DNA of 64,000 nt from a candidate division WOR-3 bacterium (GCA_015489175.1 WGAI01000008.1:2457-66456), one strand, 5' to 3'. Positions 19,103-27,403 are shown, counted from the stretch's first letter. Numbers and translations: made by a program. Notes: a model not told the origin generated them from the letters alone.

Positions 19103-19729
19103 TCAAATCAATCCGAGCCACGAGTGAAGCAAGAAGTAAATTCTTCCAATCAAGAGACTTACACGAGCCATTATCGTGTATCCGAACGAGGCGCCAAATG
19201 CCACCATTATGAAAACTATGCCTATTTTTGCGGCGGCGCCGAATTTCCCTTTTATTGGCTTCGAGAAGTAGAAGTATGTTATTGTGAAAACGGTTCCGAA
19301 CACCAGGAACCAGTTGTTGACTGTCGTGGCAAGGCCACCGCTAACCCAGAGCGGCAGGAAAGTGCCTTTCAGCTGTGGCACAAGGTAACCGTTCAGCATT
19401 CCGAGGATGCCGAGCCCGGCGCCCATGCCAACCGCGAACGCTATTGCCCATCTCGAAAGCCATCTTATCTGTGGGATGAAACGGGTCAGCATAAGTATGG
19501 ACAAAATCAGCGGCACGATGACGGCCAGAATGTTACCGCTCGCTATGGGATCCCAGAGTTTGGGCTTCACATCGAAAAACCACAGGTTGAGGAATGCAAA
19601 GGCGGCGGACGACCCCACGAACACGCTTTCAGCGAACTTGTAAAACGGGTTGTCCTTGTAAAGAAAACTGAAGATTGCAAGGGTGAAGAACGCAGCCACC
19701 CAGACCCAGATCGATGTGCTCAGATGCAT
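19103..19729 (-). CDS. Module B subunit 4: uncharacterised polytopic membrane protein
   Basis: About 6 TMs; TLAIFSFLYKDNP.Y..AE..FVG and GASFG.T.MAR.SLLIGR shared with 23564..24277. Confidence 0.85.
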   Translation of the reverse strand: MHLSTSIWVWVAAFFTLAIFSFLYKDNPFYKFAESVFVGSSAAFAFLNLWFFDVKPKLWDPIASGNILAVIVPLILSILMLTRFIPQIRWLSRWAIAFAVGMGAGLGILGMLNGYLVPQLKGTFLPLWVSGGLATTVNNWFLVFGTVFTITYFYFSKPIKGKFGAAAKIGIVFIMVAFGASFGYTIMARVSLLIGRIYFLLHSWLGLI

Positions 19730-19730
19730 T

Positions 19731-20558
19731 TCATGACCTCCTTTTCCTCTGAGTGGCGATGTAGCCGATGTTGCCGAGTATGATGAAGGCTATGATCAGG
19801 AAGTGGACAAACGCTTGCGTGGTCATACCGTAGGTAGCTGTGCCCTTGTGATGGACGAGGTTTTCGTAATCAGCGGCGGCACGCAGCCCGCCGAGCACCG
19901 CTATGATCTGACCAGCCTGCTTGTAGGGGTAAAGGTCAGGTGCAACCACGGCGGTCGAACCGAGTATTATTCTGGCACCGTATCGCGCATTGGCGAATTG
20001 CGCCCACATATCGCCCACACTGCCGGCCTCAAAACCTATGATAACGCCGATGTCATCGTAGTTCTTAATTCCATGCATCACAGGCATGTCTTTGAGTGGG
20101 CGGTTCTTGTAATCTACATTGTCGAATGTCTTGGGGATGTCCTTCCCCATACTTATCATTACGGCCTGGAGCCCCGGACGGTAGCCAAGCACGACATAAT
20201 CAACGCCATACTTCTTTCCATACTCACTGGCCACCTCTTCGACAGCCTTCTGGGCAAGTGGAACACCGAGCGCCCAGTGCGACATCACCAGAACCCTCAT
20301 GTTCCTGCTGAATAACTGTCTTAGGATAGCAACAAGCATGGGCTGAAGCTCAGGCATCGATGAGGCATCGTAGTCGGCCGAAATTATCACGGCACTGCCT
20401 TCCGGAAGAGAATTTATGAAGTCATAAGCTTCAACGACATCAGAAGTCGGCTTCATGGGAATCTCCACTTTGAAAAGGAACGGCACGGTGGCCACGATGA
20501 AAAGTATCAGGTAAATGATCCTGCGATCTATTTTCGACATGCTTTCAAAGATATTCAT
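19731..20558 (-). CDS. Module B subunit 3: TM - alpha/beta domain - TM protein
   Basis: YDFI...PGS....Y..SSMPEL.PM, DYV.LGY..G, GQI...GL.AAADYE shared with 24279..25169. Confidence 0.85.
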   Translation of the reverse strand: MNIFESMSKIDRRIIYLILFIVATVPFLFKVEIPMKPTSDVVEAYDFINSLPEGSAVIISADYDASSMPELQPMLVAILRQLFSRNMRVLVMSHWALGVPLAQKAVEEVASEYGKKYGVDYVVLGYRPGLQAVMISMGKDIPKTFDNVDYKNRPLKDMPVMHGIKNYDDIGVIIGFEAGSVGDMWAQFANARYGARIILGSTAVVAPDLYPYKQAGQIIAVLGGLRAAADYENLVHHKGTATYGMTTQAFVHFLIIAFIILGNIGYIATQRKRRS

Positions 20559-20568
20559 GGCTGCCTCC

Positions 20569-21354
20569 TTAGCTCATGTAACTCCGCTCTATGCCGAGGA
20601 TGATGCGCAGTGAAACAGCTATCCCTCCGAGAGCGAGCCCGAGCATTATCCCCCTCTTAGCTGCCATCTGAGGTATGTCCATGATCCAGTCCGTTGCCGC
20701 CGACAGATTGCCGTAGAGAAATTTTGTGAGGGGCACAGCTATGACCACCATCAAAATCAGCATGAGGAGGTAACCCACGCGCGTTGATGCTGATGTCGTC
20801 GCCTTTATCTCGAGTAACAGAACCCATGCGACAAGCAGAACCGCTATCCACAGGACGGGGATAAGCGCTGCATTTCCGAGAGGCACGCGTCCGAGCATGA
20901 TTATTGACGCCGTGATAAGCAGCAATGTGGCGTTAAGGCTCCTCGCCCTGAATGCGCGATAAGCGGCACTGGCTATGAAAAACGACAGAATTGCGAACAT
21001 CGTCGCCTGCAACGGCACATAGATGTAGAGGTAGAAGTAGTTGCGGAATGTGGAATTGGTCGAGAAGATGTGGCCTGTCCGCACCCCCGAAACGATGCCC
21101 CAGACCAGCGTCACCACGAAACTCAGGATAACCGTAAGAGCAAACGGCCAATCCTTGCCTTTCCTGCGAATTTTGTCCCAGTTGTAAAGGAGCAGACTGT
21201 CTATGCCGAGGATAAATGTGAACCCTGAAACTATGATATACCAGGAATTTAGTGTTTCCTCCATCTTGTTGAAAGGCGGGTGCGGGACAAAAAGGCTTAT
21301 CACTATCAATGTTCCAGCCAGAAAGCTTATGAGAAGCGGTATCTCTCTTTTCAT
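20569..21354 (-). CDS. Module B subunit 2: uncharacterised polytopic membrane protein
   Basis: VPL.ATMF..L.F...SAAYRAFRAR...ATLLL and W.M..P..A.KRGI..G shared with 25166..25783. Start at ATG 21354, overlapping the subunit 1 stop (ATGA). Confidence 0.85.
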   Translation of the reverse strand: MKREIPLLISFLAGTLIVISLFVPHPPFNKMEETLNSWYIIVSGFTFILGIDSLLLYNWDKIRRKGKDWPFALTVILSFVVTLVWGIVSGVRTGHIFSTNSTFRNYFYLYIYVPLQATMFAILSFFIASAAYRAFRARSLNATLLLITASIIMLGRVPLGNAALIPVLWIAVLLVAWVLLLEIKATTSASTRVGYLLMLILMVVIAVPLTKFLYGNLSAATDWIMDIPQMAAKRGIMLGLALGGIAVSLRIILGIERSYMS

Positions 21355-22490
21355 TGGGCACCTCCCGCGAAGAAGGTCTTGATTAACGACCACGACTTAT
21401 TGCCTGTGACGCCTGCAACTGTCTCCAGCACGGCGCCCACGAGTATCAAACCGATGAATATGATCTTCATCCAGTCCTCAGCCTTGATCGTTGCGAGGGA
21501 ATTGGGATCTCTGGATAGGTATGCGCTTGCAGCATACATCTCCTCACCTATCAGGGTGTAGTCGGTCGCTGCAATGAGGAACGGCAGCTGGGTGACAGAC
21601 GATGTGCCGGCAATCTGGATTGCACCTATCGAGTGCCCTGTCTCTGCGATTATCAGGGATTCCGCATAGAATGCGCCCTGAAGGAATATCGCACCGGGTT
21701 TCTGTCTCATGATGATGCCGTCTATGCCTGCGGCATAACCAAACTGGTCGTTTGTGAGGAAATAGACATTTTTTTCGTTGTAAAGGTCGGGTCTGCCTGC
21801 TTCAAGATACCCCTGTTTCACGGTCTCCTGTGCAGCGGCCATGACGACAGGGTCAAAGCATGGCACGATTATATCCGATTCGTATTCAGCGGCTTTCATC
21901 GCAACACGCTTGAGGATAGCAAGGCCGGCGAGCGTGGCTATGTCGGAAACCGTGCCAAGTCCGAGCACAAAAAGGAGCGGCCTGCCCATCTCGGTGGCTC
22001 TTCCGACTGCATCATCGACGGCCTGAAGTCCAGCTATCGGTCTAATGGTCAGCCTCTCGCCTCTTCGCGCCTTCTTGAGGTAGTAGATGAGCAAAGCACC
22101 ATAAAGCAAAAGGATTATCAACGCCGCAATACGGCCTTTGTGAAGCCATTGTGCCCTGGGAACCACCGGCGGAGATATTGCCGAGTCTATGTAATCGCCA
22201 TCTTTGAACCAGACACGGATGAAATACCTGTAAGGATGCCCATTTTTAAGGTCAGTATCCATGTATCGCCTTGCAGTGGGCTTGAGTTCCTCCACGACAA
22301 CGGGGGCTGTGCCCGGTCTATCGATTCGCATGATTTGAATGTAGCTAATCTGTGATAGGTCAGCATCTTTCCTGTAATCCCATTTAAGAATAATCTGGCC
22401 GCCCTCGTCGTTGGGGTTGTCCATAACCTTGAGGTCAACGATCGGAGAGGGCCTGACAGAAAAGATGACCATCAAAACAAAACTTATCAT
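21351..22490 (-). CDS. Module B subunit 1: signal peptide, FN3-like domain, TM, DUF6754-like domain, TM
   Basis: D.PNDEGG.I.LKW and Y.DTDL.NG..Y.Y.I (FN3-like); IRPIAGL.AVD.AVGRATEMGRP; AES...AETG; IGEEMYAASAYL. SD AGGAGG 6 nt before ATG 22490. Confidence 0.85.
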   Translation of the reverse strand: MISFVLMVIFSVRPSPIVDLKVMDNPNDEGGQIILKWDYRKDADLSQISYIQIMRIDRPGTAPVVVEELKPTARRYMDTDLKNGHPYRYFIRVWFKDGDYIDSAISPPVVPRAQWLHKGRIAALIILLLYGALLIYYLKKARRGERLTIRPIAGLQAVDDAVGRATEMGRPLLFVLGLGTVSDIATLAGLAILKRVAMKAAEYESDIIVPCFDPVVMAAAQETVKQGYLEAGRPDLYNEKNVYFLTNDQFGYAAGIDGIIMRQKPGAIFLQGAFYAESLIIAETGHSIGAIQIAGTSSVTQLPFLIAATDYTLIGEEMYAASAYLSRDPNSLATIKAEDWMKIIFIGLILVGAVLETVAGVTGNKSWSLIKTFFAGGAQ

Positions 22491-22537
22491 CAAAGACCTC
22501 CTTTTGACCGATTTTTGGCTAATACCGGCTCGAACGA

Positions 22538-23452
22538 TCAATCAACCTTAGGGAAAACAGACAGGTGCAGCAACCGGTTATGTGAGTCGGTCAGCCCGGT
22601 AGCAACCAACTCCTCACCTATGTATCTTAAATCACTACCATCGACCGCTCCATTAAAAACCTCAAACTCGGCCGACATGATGTGAGTCATGATCTTTTCG
22701 AGATCCTCTTTGCCCACAAGTGATGTCTGTTTTGACGAGAGCTCAATCGCGTCGAGAGCGAACCCTCGAACAAGCTTGTCCTTAAATTTTCTCATAAGCT
22801 CGTTGGAGCTGAAGATGTCAACAGAGAGGAATTCACCGCCTGCAAATGCCGCTATCCCAATAACATCATCGGTTATGTCTATCTCTTCGACATACCTCTC
22901 TATTTCATCTTTCAAAGCGACAAAAGCGTCGTGGAGCGAGCGTGTAGGTGACTCGAGCCTCATAGACGAGAGCTTATGGGAAACCGAGCTCCAGACCACT
23001 TTCTGGTTAGAATAGAACCTGCCGGTGATTTTAACGGAATGGGTAACAGAGGAAGCAAGCGTAGCCCTGAGCCTCGGATGAACTGATATCCCGGATGGAG
23101 CAAATATCCTGCTGCCTGACCACCTCCACTCCTCAATACAACTCACGGGCACGGCCGCCCTTTTTGACGACTCAAACCAGATAGCCGTGTTGAAAACCCT
23201 GTTCTGAAGTGCCCCCACAATTGCCTCGCCATCGAGTATGAACATCGGCTCATTTCCCCGGTAGTCGATTATAGCGGAACTGACACTCCCTGAATCGATG
23301 ATCTCACCCAGGTTATTCGCCAGCATATCATCGATGGTCAAAGCTGATAGCTTATCAGAAGGGCCTTTGAGCGGATATATGAGCAAATTCCTTGCCCAAA
23401 ATGGCTCCCCTATCTCTATATCCACCATTTCTTTAATTCTCACATTTCCCAT
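22538..23452 (-). CDS. ARPP-1 / DUF6569-like protein
   Basis: NL.IYPL, FILDGE.IVGA.QNRV.NT, VPVSC.E..RW, Q..VW..V, S.T.SL.D, D.F...L..GFALDA. Confidence 0.78.
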   Translation of the reverse strand: MGNVRIKEMVDIEIGEPFWARNLLIYPLKGPSDKLSALTIDDMLANNLGEIIDSGSVSSAIIDYRGNEPMFILDGEAIVGALQNRVFNTAIWFESSKRAAVPVSCIEEWRWSGSRIFAPSGISVHPRLRATLASSVTHSVKITGRFYSNQKVVWSSVSHKLSSMRLESPTRSLHDAFVALKDEIERYVEEIDITDDVIGIAAFAGGEFLSVDIFSSNELMRKFKDKLVRGFALDAIELSSKQTSLVGKEDLEKIMTHIMSAEFEVFNGAVDGSDLRYIGEELVATGLTDSHNRLLHLSVFPKVD

Positions 23453-23501
23453 ATCTCACACCTCACAAATGGATTTGTTAATCGATAATAAAACAAAGCA
23501 C

Positions 23502-23534
23502 AAAAAAAATAAAGGGCCCGTTTCCAGGCCCTTT
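23502..23534 (-). terminator. Intrinsic terminator after module A
   Basis: aaagggcc/ggcccttt 8-bp stem followed by an 8-U tract on the minus strand. Confidence 0.8.
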
Positions 23535-23563
23535 TATTGCGATGTTACAGATGGTCTAAAGCA

Positions 23564-24277
23564 TCAATAAGAAACTATGTGAAGCCACTTAAGCAGGAAC
23601 ATCAACCTTCCTATGAGCAGAGAATAACGCGCCATCACAGTGGAGCCGAAGGAGGCTCCAAATCCGATCATCAGCACTATGATGCCAAATCTGGCGAATT
23701 TTCCGTATGCGCCCTTGTGCTCCTTTGAGAAGAAGAAATATGCCAGCACAGCGAGCACCGACACGAAGATGATGATAGCGCTTATGAATACCACTGTGAG
23801 GCTCCACTCGTATTGCTTCGATAGCTCAGCATATCCCTGCCAGTTCGGTGAATGAAGTATCGTGTCCCACATCTGCTCAAGGATACTTGCCTGAAATGCA
23901 CGCGGTATGGCCATTCCAGAGCCAAGTCCCAACAGGAACGCAAACGGCAGCCTTATCAGGTATGAATACTTAGGCGTGATGACCGAAAGGTAAAGCAGGG
24001 CGAATATAGTCGGAATTATATACCACCAGTTTATCGGAAGAAGCTCACCACCGAGAAGATGCAGCCGCTGCATGATCGGGATTATAAAAGGATCCATCAG
24101 ATTGGGCTTCATTGCAAGGAAGTAGGTCATTGCAAACCCGTATCCTGCCGATAGACCAACAAAAAGGTATTCGGCAAGACGATAAACTGGGTTCTCTTTA
24201 TAAAGGAACGAAAAAATGGCGAGCGTTAGAAACGCCGCCAGTGTTTCCCAGCTGAAAAGCCAGTGAAGGATGCCCAT
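23564..24277 (-). CDS. Module A subunit 4: uncharacterised polytopic membrane protein
   Basis: Paralog of 19103..19729 (TLAIFSFLYKENP..., GASFGSTVMARYSLLIGR). Confidence 0.85.
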   Translation of the reverse strand: MGILHWLFSWETLAAFLTLAIFSFLYKENPVYRLAEYLFVGLSAGYGFAMTYFLAMKPNLMDPFIIPIMQRLHLLGGELLPINWWYIIPTIFALLYLSVITPKYSYLIRLPFAFLLGLGSGMAIPRAFQASILEQMWDTILHSPNWQGYAELSKQYEWSLTVVFISAIIIFVSVLAVLAYFFFSKEHKGAYGKFARFGIIVLMIGFGASFGSTVMARYSLLIGRLMFLLKWLHIVSY

Positions 24278-24278
24278 T

Positions 24279-25169
24279 TTATCTCCTCCTTCTCTGCTGC
24301 TTGCGAATCATGAAAAATGCGAGGTTACCTACTATCACCATGAGTATGAGGTAAAGCTGAGCCCATGTAACGGCTGTGATACCGACTGTCGCGTAAGGTG
24401 GCGGTGTGTAATGAAGTTCCTTTTCCATGAGTTTGGCCACGGCGGCCTCGTAGTCAGCGGCGGCTTTCATACCGTTCAGCAAACCAACAAGCTGGCCTGT
24501 CCTGATGTATTGCTGGTAATCAGCGCCCATGACTGCCGTAATGCCGATCGCTATCTTCTGGTTGAACTGCTGATACGCGTAGGTTATCCATGTAGCACCT
24601 GAACCACTTGCGCTGAAGTCGATTACGAGATCGATGTCGTCATAATTGTGTATCCTTGCCGTCAGCGGCATCGTTTCCTCATCGCTTGTTGAGTGTCCGA
24701 AGTAGTCCACCGGAAATGTCTCGTGGAAATCACCCCCGATACCGCGTATAACCATGGCGTAACCGGTTTTATAGCCCAGATATACATAATCCTTGCCGTA
24801 TTGTAACGGGTGACCTGCCTCCTGGAATTCCTTTGCAACGCTGTTGAAGACATCAAGTCCAAGTCCCGTTCCTTCGATGTTGAGCGACATTCCTATGACT
24901 TTAACACCCCTCAAAAGTGCATGCCTCATGACAGCTTTGGCCATGGGATGCAGCTCTGGCATGGAGCTCGGCCCATAGGTGAAGTTCATCAGCAACACGG
25001 AGCCGGGCTTCATGTGGTCGATGTAGTCGTAAACAAGACGGGTCTCAAGTCCCATCTTCGGATGCGCTTTGATCTTAAGCACTATCGGCAGAATCATAAC
25101 GATCAGGAGGCCGAGATAGATCCAGAACCTTGGAAGTTTCGATAACTTTTCCCAGAAGCTCATGGTCAT
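24279..25169 (-). CDS. Module A subunit 3: TM - alpha/beta domain - TM protein
   Basis: Paralog of 19731..20558 (SSMPELHPM, DYVYLGYKTG, GQLVGLLNGMKAAADYE). Confidence 0.85.
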   Translation of the reverse strand: MTMSFWEKLSKLPRFWIYLGLLIVMILPIVLKIKAHPKMGLETRLVYDYIDHMKPGSVLLMNFTYGPSSMPELHPMAKAVMRHALLRGVKVIGMSLNIEGTGLGLDVFNSVAKEFQEAGHPLQYGKDYVYLGYKTGYAMVIRGIGGDFHETFPVDYFGHSTSDEETMPLTARIHNYDDIDLVIDFSASGSGATWITYAYQQFNQKIAIGITAVMGADYQQYIRTGQLVGLLNGMKAAADYEAAVAKLMEKELHYTPPPYATVGITAVTWAQLYLILMVIVGNLAFFMIRKQQRRRR

Positions 25170-25783
25170 CCTCCCATCCAGTTTCTTTCAATACCGAGTA
25201 TGATCTTCACGGATGTGGCAATCATACCAAGTCCGACCCCGATCGTGATACCGCGTTTCTGAGCCAGATTAGGCACATTCATGATCCATTCCTGAAGGTC
25301 GCGGAGCCATGTCTGGGAATCACCTATCGTCGAAATCCCGAGAATGACGAGTATAGCTGTGAGCAATAGCAGTGTAGCTTCCACATTTCTCGCACGGAAT
25401 GCACGATAAGCAGCTGATGTAACATAGAAACCGAGCAGTGAGAACATCGTCGCGTCAAGCGGAACCTGCACATTGATAAATATCTTCTGGAACACACTGT
25501 CAGGTCCTGTGCCATTTATGAGGCCAAGAAGGGCCATTCCGAACAGACTTATCAACGCCACAAGATTGTAAACAACTTCTTTGCCCCTCTTGATGTTGGT
25601 TATGTATCTGCGGATGAGTGAAGTAATAGCAAGGAATATAGCGAACGAGCCTATGGCTATCGACCACTGGCTCAATGTGTTTTCCAGCGCTTGAGCTGAT
25701 GGATGGGGTATGAAATACAGAGAAGCACCGATCACCCCCATCACGAACACGAGAATCATCGGCAATGTTCGAGAGAAAAACAT
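25166..25783 (-). CDS. Module A subunit 2: uncharacterised polytopic membrane protein
   Basis: Paralog of 20569..21354 (VPLDATMFSLLGFYVTSAAYRAFRARNVEATLLL). Confidence 0.85.
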   Translation of the reverse strand: MFFSRTLPMILVFVMGVIGASLYFIPHPSAQALENTLSQWSIAIGSFAIFLAITSLIRRYITNIKRGKEVVYNLVALISLFGMALLGLINGTGPDSVFQKIFINVQVPLDATMFSLLGFYVTSAAYRAFRARNVEATLLLLTAILVILGISTIGDSQTWLRDLQEWIMNVPNLAQKRGITIGVGLGMIATSVKIILGIERNWMGG

Positions 25784-25794
25784 GTCATATCCTC

Positions 25795-26913
25795 CTACTT
25801 TCCAACGACATAAGGTTTAATAGCATCGACTTTTGCACTGAGCGAAGGGACGAAAGCGGCGATCGTCAAGAGCAGCAGGAATCCCACAAGCACAGCCTTC
25901 ATGACATCCTGTCCCTTTATCGTGGCCGTAAGCCTCGGATCTTTTGCGAGGTAAGCACCAGCAGCGTAAAGCTCTTCACCCATCAGGGTGTAGTCACAAG
26001 CAGTTACAAAGAACGGCAGCTGAGATATGGCATCGGTGCCAGCGATCTGGATGGCGCCTGTCGCGGCTCCGGTCTCTGCAAGAATCAATGACTCTGCGAA
26101 GAAGTAGCCCATGAAGAAGTTGGTAGCCGTCTTTTCACGAACCATTATTCCGGATACGCCTGCGGCATAAGCGAACTGCCTCTGAGTCAGGAAGAATACA
26201 TCCTCACTTTTGAACAGATCTGGCCTGCCCGCTGCGGTGTAAGCATCCTTAACCACCTCACGCGCAACCGTGTAAACGATAGGATCGTAAACAGGAACGA
26301 TGATCCTTGTCTCATAAGCTGCCACTTTTTTCGTGATGTAAGCGAGGATGTTGAGCGCTGCGATAGTCGAAACATCGGTCACACCGAGCAGTCCGGTAGA
26401 GTATAGGATTGGCCGTCCCATCTCGGTGGCACGCCCAATGGCATTATCCACTTCCGCAAGCCCGGCTATAGGCCTCAAATATAACTCCTGGCCCTTCTGA
26501 GCTTTCGACATATAGGAAAGCAGGATTGCAATGTAGAAGATCGCGAGGAGGAGCAGGAACAGCTTTTTCTTGTTGAAAAGCGACGCCTTTGGTATAACGC
26601 TGTTGGAGACAGTTTGAGTTACGAACTTACCGGTCTTAGTGTTGACCAACACATAGTATCTAACGGGCATGGTATCAGACAATTCCCGATCACCAAGTCT
26701 TATAACGGTGTCCTTCACCTCACCTACATAAATGTCTTTCTTGACACCGTTATCCTCAATCCTGGTGATCCGCATAATGTCACCGATAAGTGAATTATCC
26801 AGTTTGACAATAATCTGCGTTCTGCCCCCCCCGTCGTCAGGCACATCGCGAGCCTTGACGGAGAGTTTGCTATTGGCCCCTGTCAGAAGGAGCAGTAATA
26901 CAAGCTTCACCAT
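25795..26913 (-). CDS. Module A subunit 1: signal peptide, FN3-like domain, TM, DUF6754-like domain, TM
   Basis: ARDVPDDGGG; LRPIAGL.EVDNAIGRATEMGRP; AESLILAETG; MGEELYAAGAYL. Paralog of 21351..22490. Confidence 0.85.
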   Translation of the reverse strand: MVKLVLLLLLTGANSKLSVKARDVPDDGGGRTQIIVKLDNSLIGDIMRITRIEDNGVKKDIYVGEVKDTVIRLGDRELSDTMPVRYYVLVNTKTGKFVTQTVSNSVIPKASLFNKKKLFLLLLAIFYIAILLSYMSKAQKGQELYLRPIAGLAEVDNAIGRATEMGRPILYSTGLLGVTDVSTIAALNILAYITKKVAAYETRIIVPVYDPIVYTVAREVVKDAYTAAGRPDLFKSEDVFFLTQRQFAYAAGVSGIMVREKTATNFFMGYFFAESLILAETGAATGAIQIAGTDAISQLPFFVTACDYTLMGEELYAAGAYLAKDPRLTATIKGQDVMKAVLVGFLLLLTIAAFVPSLSAKVDAIKPYVVGK

Positions 26914-26945: not shown

Positions 26946-26973
26946 CAAAAAAACCGCCCCAGCAAGCGGCGTT
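26946..26973 (-). terminator. Probable intrinsic terminator after the EF-G paralog/lipoprotein pair
   Basis: Minus strand gccgc-ttgctggg-gcggt followed by a long U-run. Confidence 0.6.
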
Positions 26974-26986
26974 ACAGTCGAAAAGG

Positions 26987-27403
26987 TCAATACACAGCTC
27001 TGACGACAGCTTGGGGAGTTATGATTCTGCCGCTCTTGCCGTCAAATTCGTAATCTATCACGACCTCCACGGTGTCATTAGGCTGCAATTGAAGATTGTA
27101 GATGTGCAGCTCGTTGGCGCTCGTGATCTCCCATTTGGCAAGGGAATCCTCAACTTCCGTCCCGTTGATAACAAAACTAATGCCCCTGAGCCGAACCTTG
27201 TTCAGCATATCTTCAGGGGCATTTGAAAGGTCAAAAGAAATCAGAATGTGACCTTTCCGAGCAGATAGAGTGTCGAAGGTGGGCATGAGGTTAACCCACG
27301 CCTCGACACTCTGTATATTCGCTTTTTTCCCGTTAAAGCATGACACGGCAGTTAGAACAACAACCAATATTGCAATCCCAATGGCTCTAAGCCTGAACCT
27401 CAC
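26987..27403 (-). CDS. Hypothetical lipoprotein
   Basis: Signal peptide with lipobox TAVS-C; start overlaps the stop of the EF-G paralog. Confidence 0.7.
   Translation of the reverse strand: MRFRLRAIGIAILVVVLTAVSCFNGKKANIQSVEAWVNLMPTFDTLSARKGHILISFDLSNAPEDMLNKVRLRGISFVINGTEVEDSLAKWEITSANELHIYNLQLQPNDTVEVVIDYEFDGKSGRIITPQAVVRAVY

Follow-up and report, generated by a model that had tools for sequence, protein, structure and literature searches.

Two cassettes of four genes each, A and B, lie on the minus strand at positions 19,103 to 26,913 of a 64,000-nt stretch of DNA (referred to as the window) from a candidate division WOR-3 bacterium (GCA_015489175.1, WGAI01000008.1:2457-66456). Each cassette very probably encodes one membrane complex that is functionally tied to a cytoplasmic ATPase pair encoded elsewhere in the genome. 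An earlier note, made from the sequence of the window, had described eight minus-strand open reading frames (ORFs) in which the same four-gene order occurs twice, and all eight are present as follows.

25795..26913, minus strand: A1, subunit 1 of cassette A, 372 amino acids (aa); ORF and PF20539 match
25166..25783, minus strand: A2, subunit 2 of cassette A, 205 aa; ORF and hydropathy
24279..25169, minus strand: A3, subunit 3 of cassette A, 296 aa; ORF and hydropathy
23564..24277, minus strand: A4, subunit 4 of cassette A, 237 aa; ORF and hydropathy
21351..22490, minus strand: B1, subunit 1 of cassette B, 379 aa from the ATG at 22490
20569..21354, minus strand: B2, long-type subunit 2 of cassette B, 261 aa, about 8 transmembrane (TM) helices
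19731..20558, minus strand: B3, subunit 3 of cassette B, 275 aa
19103..19729, minus strand: B4, subunit 4 of cassette B, 208 aa

According to these coordinates, A1 and A2 are separated by 11 nt, A2 and A3 overlap by 4 nt and A3 and A4 are 1 nt apart; in cassette B the corresponding junctions are a 4-nt overlap, a 10-nt gap and a 1-nt gap. For B1, the ATG at 22490 was preferred over the start of a longer TTG ORF because a AAAGGAGG Shine-Dalgarno sequence lies immediately 5′ of it. The assembly (2.06 Mb, 77 contigs) was searched for more cassettes. The result showed a third complete cassette, C, with the same order 1-2-3-4 on another contig (C26:23098-26350, minus strand; locus L105), whose subunit 1 scores 350 bits against DUF6754. 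The genome therefore holds three cassettes and not just the two specificity variants first proposed.

Subunit 1 had been thought to resemble DUF6754 (PF20539), and the matches are far above the gathering score of 27 bits (A1, E = 1.5e-105, 352 bits; B1, E = 1.4e-109, 366 bits); the subunit 1 proteins of A, B and C all cover the full model (E = 1e-105 to 1e-110). Public records often annotate this subunit as 'fibronectin type III domain-containing protein'. A1 is laid out as a signal peptide, an FN3-like ectodomain, a TM segment at about residues 118-136, the Rossmann-like DUF6754 domain and a C-terminal TM segment at about residues 337-355, and the signal peptide and FN3 head would place the DUF6754 domain in the cytoplasm. 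The FN3-like head gave a profile match to PDB entry 3mpc, an 'Fn3-like protein' (E = 9e-4), and in the AlphaFold2 model it forms a seven-strand beta-sandwich for which Foldseek gives FN3 matches. The AlphaFold2 model of full-length A1, built on an alignment of 11 sequences, was poor (predicted local distance difference test score, pLDDT, 67) and had Foldseek matches to FN3/Ig only. Residues 105-372, modelled with 100 sequences, reached a pLDDT of 93.7 and a predicted template modelling score of 0.87, and showed a TM helix, a six-stranded alpha/beta Rossmann-like domain and two C-terminal helices. Among the three paralogues, conservation is highest in the DUF6754 core (52-67% identity) and lowest in the FN3 head (26-31%), which bears out the impression that the heads differ most between copies. 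About 30 residues of the DUF6754 domain are invariant, many of them polar (R, E, D, Q, T).

A2 is polytopic, with five hydropathy peaks (about 6 TM helices by inspection), and C2 is likewise; B2 has eight peaks and carries about 55 inserted aa, equal to two TM helices more than in A2 and C2 (BLASTP and hydropathy). Subunit 2 carries the conserved motifs AAYRAFRAR and GIER. A3 has two TM segments by hydropathy, one N-terminal and one C-terminal, which enclose a central domain of about 230 aa and are followed by an Arg-rich tail (RKQQRRRR); from this tail and the positive-inside rule, the central domain of subunit 3 would be periplasmic and the tail cytoplasmic. A4 is polytopic with four hydropathy peaks, B4 and C4 have six to seven, and about 6 TM helices are predicted for subunit 4, whose motifs are FSFLYK.NP and GFGASFG.T.MAR.

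Profile searches, which the earlier note had proposed, put a name to subunit 1 only: subunits 2, 3 and 4 had no match in Pfam or NCBIfam, either singly or as about 30 family members each, and none to PDB sequences by profile search. Homology between subunits 1 and 3 and between subunits 2 and 4 was considered and rejected (hhalign probabilities of 0.7% and 1.6%, respectively). In Pfam and NCBIfam the cassette proteins showed no nucleotide-binding motif and no match to an ABC (ATP-binding cassette) ATPase, EcfT, a permease, DctQ/DctM, TctA/B or EII of the phosphotransferase system (PTS). These searches confirm the original observation that no ABC, TRAP (tripartite ATP-independent periplasmic) or PTS motif is present, and they gave no Rnf/Nqr match either. 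Nor was a catalytic or signalling output domain detected in any subunit with the same two databases.

Comparison of A and B by BLASTP showed identities of 45% for subunit 1 (E = 3e-110), 29% for subunit 2 (E = 4e-36), 35% for subunit 3 (E = 4e-52) and 39% for subunit 4 (E = 1e-44). The strong divergence seen by eye is thus real, although at 29-45% the identity is somewhat lower than the half of the residues first estimated. At the DNA level only 246 nt (68% identity) and 71 nt (72%) could be aligned, both in the core of subunit 1, and the GC content, overall and at third codon positions, is similar in the two cassettes and in adjacent genes. An assembly repeat is ruled out because DNA similarity is left only in these two short stretches. 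Cassette C shares 42-51% identity with A and 30-43% with B. In the tree of DUF6754 domains A1 and C1 are sisters, and B1 groups not with A1 but with WOR-3 orthologues (L015, L023 and L053) that likewise have a long subunit 2; in Zixibacteria arrays, cassettes at the same position in different genomes cluster together. With B2 as query, a full-length long-type subunit 2 was seen exactly once per genome in 43 of 43 sampled genomes of the class. The near-total loss of DNA similarity, the tree and the distribution of B2 together agree with the view that the duplication is old and retained, and not an assembly repeat. It was not a tandem one, as had been supposed: local duplication of A and B is rejected because A is sister to C, on another contig, and B stands on a separate deep branch. 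Since the single B2 orthologue extends over all 43 class genomes, including those of the one-cassette families f8 and f10, B is a deep separate subtype and the core type across the class, with A and C as additions.

At 90% identity, homologues of A1 form more than 8000 clusters. Species-representative genomes contained at least 593 confirmed loci, of which the best 80, containing 102 subunit-1 genes, were surveyed in detail; all carriers seen were metagenome-assembled genomes (MAGs). These best 80 loci include WOR-3, Cloacimonadota, Latescibacterota, Zixibacteria, Stahlbacteria, Edwardsbacteria, Aegiribacteria, Armatimonadota, Eisenbacteria, Coatesbacteria, Scalindua, Ignavibacteria, CSSED10-310 and others. 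Gene order was scored with hidden Markov models built from the three paralogues A, B and C. The result showed that the order 1-2-3-4 is kept at 78 of the 102 subunit-1 genes, over about 15 candidate phyla and with a median gap of 3.5 nt, and that two- or three-cassette tandem arrays are common. As for the remainder, about 16 are broken by contig ends and about 7 are solo. Cassettes A, B and C all conform in order, common strand and tight spacing. The idea of a dedicated, conserved four-subunit unit is supported by this survey.

Five of the solo genes belong to a Cloacimonadota arrangement, 1-2-3-4-1′, in which a second subunit-1 gene follows the cassette, suggesting exchangeable heads on one core. 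In Cloacimonadota loci L014, L030, L051, L052, L074 and L079, subunit 1 is about 950 aa long, and about 690 aa of it form an ectodomain without any Pfam match.

The ORFs on either side of the cassettes in the 80 loci were clustered. In 14 of these loci, genes for a small membrane protein, a small protein, an ATPase and a partner protein lie, in that order and on the cassette's strand, immediately 5′ of the cassette. The ATPase, of about 600 aa, belongs to the MutL/GlmL family of the ASKHA (actin/Hsp70-fold) group (PF13941, E = 1e-124); the partner, of about 375 aa, contains a barrel-sandwich-hybrid domain, and the median gap between partner and cassette is about 50 nt. Titled records among the 14 fused loci are from Armatimonadota, Eisenbacteria, Scalindua and Zipacnadia, the remaining labels being absent or doubtful. 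The order MutL, partner, cassettes also occurs inside the phylum, in families f15 and f16 and in genome G005, whose contig C127 has three consecutive cassettes. Apart from the ATPase set, no flanking family recurs beyond a few related loci of the 80; glycine-cleavage genes near some loci were discarded, as these were too few and the loci too closely related to count.

Each of the four linked genes has exactly one homologue in this genome, on contigs C29, C70, C20 and C61. The ATPase (C29:11771-13663) and the partner (C70:23832-24953) are 58% and 57% identical, respectively, to the queries from loci L040 and L042. The ATPase has a C-terminal extension of about 160 aa, and its phosphate-1, phosphate-2 and adenosine motifs are intact. 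The partner here has 373 aa, with a barrel-sandwich-hybrid N-terminal domain and a C-terminal stretch that is KOW/SH3-like by eye only. A biotin/lipoyl carrier or phospho-histidine relay in the partner was considered and found unsupported, there being no invariant hairpin Lys and no invariant His in 14 sequences.

Phyletic distribution was examined in one fixed set of 151 genomes from 79 genera of the phylum. DUF6754 was present in 141 of the 151 genomes and in 78 of the 79 genera, with 1-6 cassettes per genome, mostly 2-3. Both the partner and the MutL/GlmL-type ATPase were found in 138 genomes, essentially in single copy; within the phylum, identity of the ATPase is 68-84%. About 138 of the 141 carriers have all three families, and the ATPase pair was found without a cassette in none of the 151 genomes. 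All 10 genomes of genus g26, a member of family f19, lack DUF6754, partner and ATPase together; the other absences are scattered and concern fragmented MAGs. Families f8 and f10 have one cassette only, of the B type, plus the ATPase pair, so that a B-type cassette with the ATPase pair would be the minimal set.

One of the small proteins occurs in single copy in 121 of the 151 genomes and was not detected in the listed g26 genomes, nor in f8 and f10. The 15 sampled f8/f10 genomes, with a B-type cassette only, have no detectable small 2-TM protein (145 aa in this genome, C61:8968-9405), and genomes that also carry short-type cassettes do have it. The extra helices of the B-type subunit 2 may substitute for this protein, or it may have diverged beyond detection. 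In some genomes a second, divergent ATPase-partner pair was seen (42-49% and 29-39% identity; for example G004 C40, G034 C48, G049 C4 and G054 C14), and that of G004 adjoins another DUF6754 gene, so that some WOR-3 genomes may have a complete paralogous system.

The earlier note had inferred a new family of secondary transporters. On this explanation the four subunits would be sufficient for a stand-alone transporter driven by an ion gradient, and the ATPase pair would be a separate entity that merely lies nearby in some genomes. Possession of several paralogues per genome is typical of transporters, the cassette has no nucleotide-binding motif recognised by Pfam or NCBIfam, and the cassettes are not next to the ATPase pair in this genome and throughout its class. 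However, the families co-occur and were jointly lost in g26 as described, neither set is found without the other except in fragmented MAGs, and the two form one operon in 14 loci; moreover, subunits 2 and 4 match no known secondary-transporter family in Pfam, NCBIfam or PDB-sequence profiles. The tie to an ASKHA ATPase and its partner, in both the 14 loci and the 151-genome pattern, makes the secondary transporter doubtful, and in its stand-alone form we regard it as very unlikely. ATP coupling appears more likely than ion-gradient coupling because of the operon fusion in the 14 loci and the co-occurrence and co-loss over the 151 genomes.

Taken together, the evidence slightly favours the reading that cassettes A, B and C are membrane modules of a larger undescribed system and share one cytoplasmic ATPase pair. 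Each cassette would give rise to a four-subunit inner-membrane complex of about 16-18 TM helices, in which subunits 2 and 4 would form the polytopic core and the two TM anchors of subunit 3 would keep the alpha/beta domain between them, of about 230 aa, on the outer face. The cytoplasmic part would consist of the single-copy GlmL/MutL-type ASKHA ATPase and the 373-aa barrel-sandwich partner, with up to two small membrane proteins as further possible members. The conserved cytoplasmic DUF6754 domain would serve the shared pair as a docking or transduction site; ATP hydrolysis would drive a conformational cycle in the subunit 2/4 core, by which something is moved across or into the cytoplasmic membrane. 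Specificity would be set by the divergent outer parts, namely the FN3 head and the subunit-3 domain, and the three modules would represent three specificities served by one energiser. This shared-energiser design is suggested by the combination of one constrained cytoplasmic pair with several diverged modules that have a conserved inner face and variable outer parts. In this genome the parts are fully dispersed and fully kept (three modules and one ATPase pair at six loci), which also argues for a shared energiser.

More tentatively, the system could be a new primary active membrane machine powered by an ASKHA ATPase, modular in the manner of the PTS or ECF transporters, with one energiser for several specificity modules, and would then be a core function in WOR-3 and at least 15 other phyla, most of them uncultured; it is equally tentative, as part of the same proposal, that its engine is of the ASKHA type and not an ABC, P-type, AAA+ or rotary one.

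Several findings weigh against the shared-ATPase reading. The ATPase pair of this genome is not directly upstream of any cassette and its components are on different contigs, so that cassettes and pair are unlinked and co-regulation is not evident. The co-loss represents one evolutionary event, in genus g26. When the DUF6754 model was compared with the PDB by Foldseek, nothing fell below E = 1e-3, the best match having E = 1.6e-3, with TM-scores of at most 0.33 and of a generic Rossmann kind. In addition, the role ascribed to GlmL-type proteins is that of chaperones or reactivases and not of motors, and the ATPase might assemble or repair the complex instead of powering it.

The last point leads to another explanation, in which the complex is not a translocator at all but a membrane-anchored sensor, scaffold or enzyme, with the GlmL-like ATPase as its chaperone or reactivase, just as GlmL is thought to serve glutamate mutase. 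The nearest named relatives of the ATPase are indeed GlmL and the Or-4 ornithine-degradation protein, both under the equivalog cut-offs (231 bits against a cut-off of 475 for the GlmL equivalog NF040745). The approximately 30 invariant, often polar residues of the DUF6754 domain could equally mark an active site, and its weak Foldseek matches include ligand-binding Rossmann domains (RCK, SIS and eIF2B). However, none of the subunits showed a catalytic or signalling output domain, conserved cofactor-binding Cys or His motifs are absent, and a polytopic core of about 12 TM helices with a domain on each membrane face is more typical of translocation machinery. A non-translocating complex is considered rather improbable. 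The ATPase is not a mutase helper here, because no match to Met_asp_mut_E, the E subunit of glutamate mutase, was found in this genome.

A divergent redox-driven ion pump of the Rnf/Nqr type was also considered, since the subunit sizes and the gene set, including one larger membrane subunit, are loosely like nqrA-E and rnfCDGEA and the partner weakly matches RnfC_N (E = 3.5e-5) and NQRA_N (E = 4.9e-3), without reaching either gathering score. However, about 90 family members gave no Pfam match to Rnf-Nqr (PF02508), RnfD/NqrB or FMN_bind, and hhalign of subunits 2 and 4 against 16 RnfA/E sequences gave probabilities of 0.4% and 4.6%. Neither invariant cysteines nor a flavinylation motif was found in the alignments of subunits 2-4, and a canonical RnfA/RnfE (PF02508) pair is already present in this genome (C36:26499-27670, minus strand). 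A match to Rnf/Nqr, which the earlier note had named as a finding that would speak against a new family, was thus seen neither by Pfam nor by hhalign; the relationship is effectively refuted at the sequence level, and such a pump is hardly credible. PF02508 itself was seen in 12 of the 31 closest relatives only.

The genes around the cassettes and the ATPase pair give weak hints of a further explanation, namely an envelope-biogenesis machine, by which a surface polymer such as a lipid-linked glycan or a glycoprotein would be flipped, exported or presented. Across seven families of the class, at least 19 genomes have the partner gene directly 3′ of, and on the same strand as, a gene for a GT-C protein O-mannosyltransferase of the TMEM260-like type (PF11028, E = 2.5e-34); in this genome, where the locus is C70:23832-29352 on the minus strand (L104), the transferase has 986 aa with TPR repeats, and a phosphomannomutase-family gene lies just upstream of it (the only genome in which this was checked). 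Downstream of cassette C lie genes for a protein resembling type IV pilins (N_methyl motif, E = 1.4e-9) and for a heptosyltransferase-like GT9 protein, and downstream of cassette B one for a CarboxypepD_reg protein whose N-terminus looks lipoprotein-like by eye. An M23 peptidase gene lies upstream in Cloacimonadota loci, and the FN3-rich ectodomains are of very variable size, reaching the figure given above for that phylum. However, TMEM260-like genes are present in 150 of the 151 genomes, including all system-less g26 genomes, and so do not co-vary with the system; the ATPase set is the only flanking family that recurs widely, and adjacency inside one class may be inherited synteny. Functional coupling to the TMEM260-like mannosyltransferase was accordingly set aside, as the transferase is kept in g26 despite the adjacency conserved in the class, and a weak hint remains. 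An envelope-biogenesis machine is unlikely.

Besides the eight cassette genes, the following features were found in this part of the window.

23511..23534, minus strand: strong intrinsic terminator after A4, a 10-bp stem with 6 GC pairs followed by a T-run
26953..26970, minus strand: weaker terminator-like hairpin 5′ of A1, by consensus match only
22538-23452, minus strand: ARPP-1 domain gene between cassettes A and B (PF20208, E = 7e-63)

The hairpin and T-run after A4 agree with the statement that module A has its own terminator, and the hairpin 5′ of A1 suggests that cassette A is a separate transcription unit. The ARPP-1 gene is probably co-transcribed with cassette B because it lies past the terminator of cassette A and 47 nt upstream of B1; the partner genes implied by its family name were not found nearby. 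A defence system, an idea prompted by this gene, was rejected, as a PADLOC scan of A1-A4, the ARPP-1 gene and two flanking genes showed no defence-system match and the system is a near-universal core trait. On the other side of cassette A, an ORF at 26987-27403 (minus strand, 138 aa), whose product has a hydrophobic segment at its N-terminus, overlaps the stop codon of an upstream EF-G paralogue; it has no Pfam or PADLOC match and is followed by the terminator-like hairpin just before A1.

The presence of the system in 78 of the 79 sampled genera, with 1-6 copies in genomes of 1.2-3.9 Mb and a conserved ATPase, points to a central role in the cell. If driven by ATP, it would represent a new type of engine for membrane bioenergetics and transport, and the present genome is a useful case in that the system is fully dispersed with every part retained. 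The searched literature made no mention of DUF6754 or PF20539, and contained nothing relevant on PF13941 or GlmL with membrane complexes.

Beyond generic folds, none of the components matches a studied system. The Pfam entry for DUF6754 is a domain catalogue record only, with no function, partner subunits or ATPase link. The ATPase shares its Pfam family and ASKHA fold with GlmL/MutL, the accessory protein of coenzyme-B12 glutamate mutase (PF13941; NF040745, NF040744 and TIGR01319). Unlike GlmL, it scores below the equivalog cut-off, has the C-terminal extension, occurs in a genome lacking the mutase E subunit and has membrane proteins, not a mutase, as conserved neighbours. Like the present system, Rnf and Na+-NQR combine a soluble barrel-sandwich-hybrid subunit with two subunits of about 200 aa that have 6 TM helices each and with a bitopic one whose domain faces outward, whereas no homology was detectable and redox cofactor motifs are absent. 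The group-II energy-coupling factor (ECF) transporters and the PTS, in which EI and HPr serve many EII, show no sequence or domain relation to the system, which has no ABC ATPase, EcfT, EI, HPr or EII, and the comparison is an analogy only; in them, as here, one conserved single-copy cytoplasmic module goes with several membrane modules encoded elsewhere.

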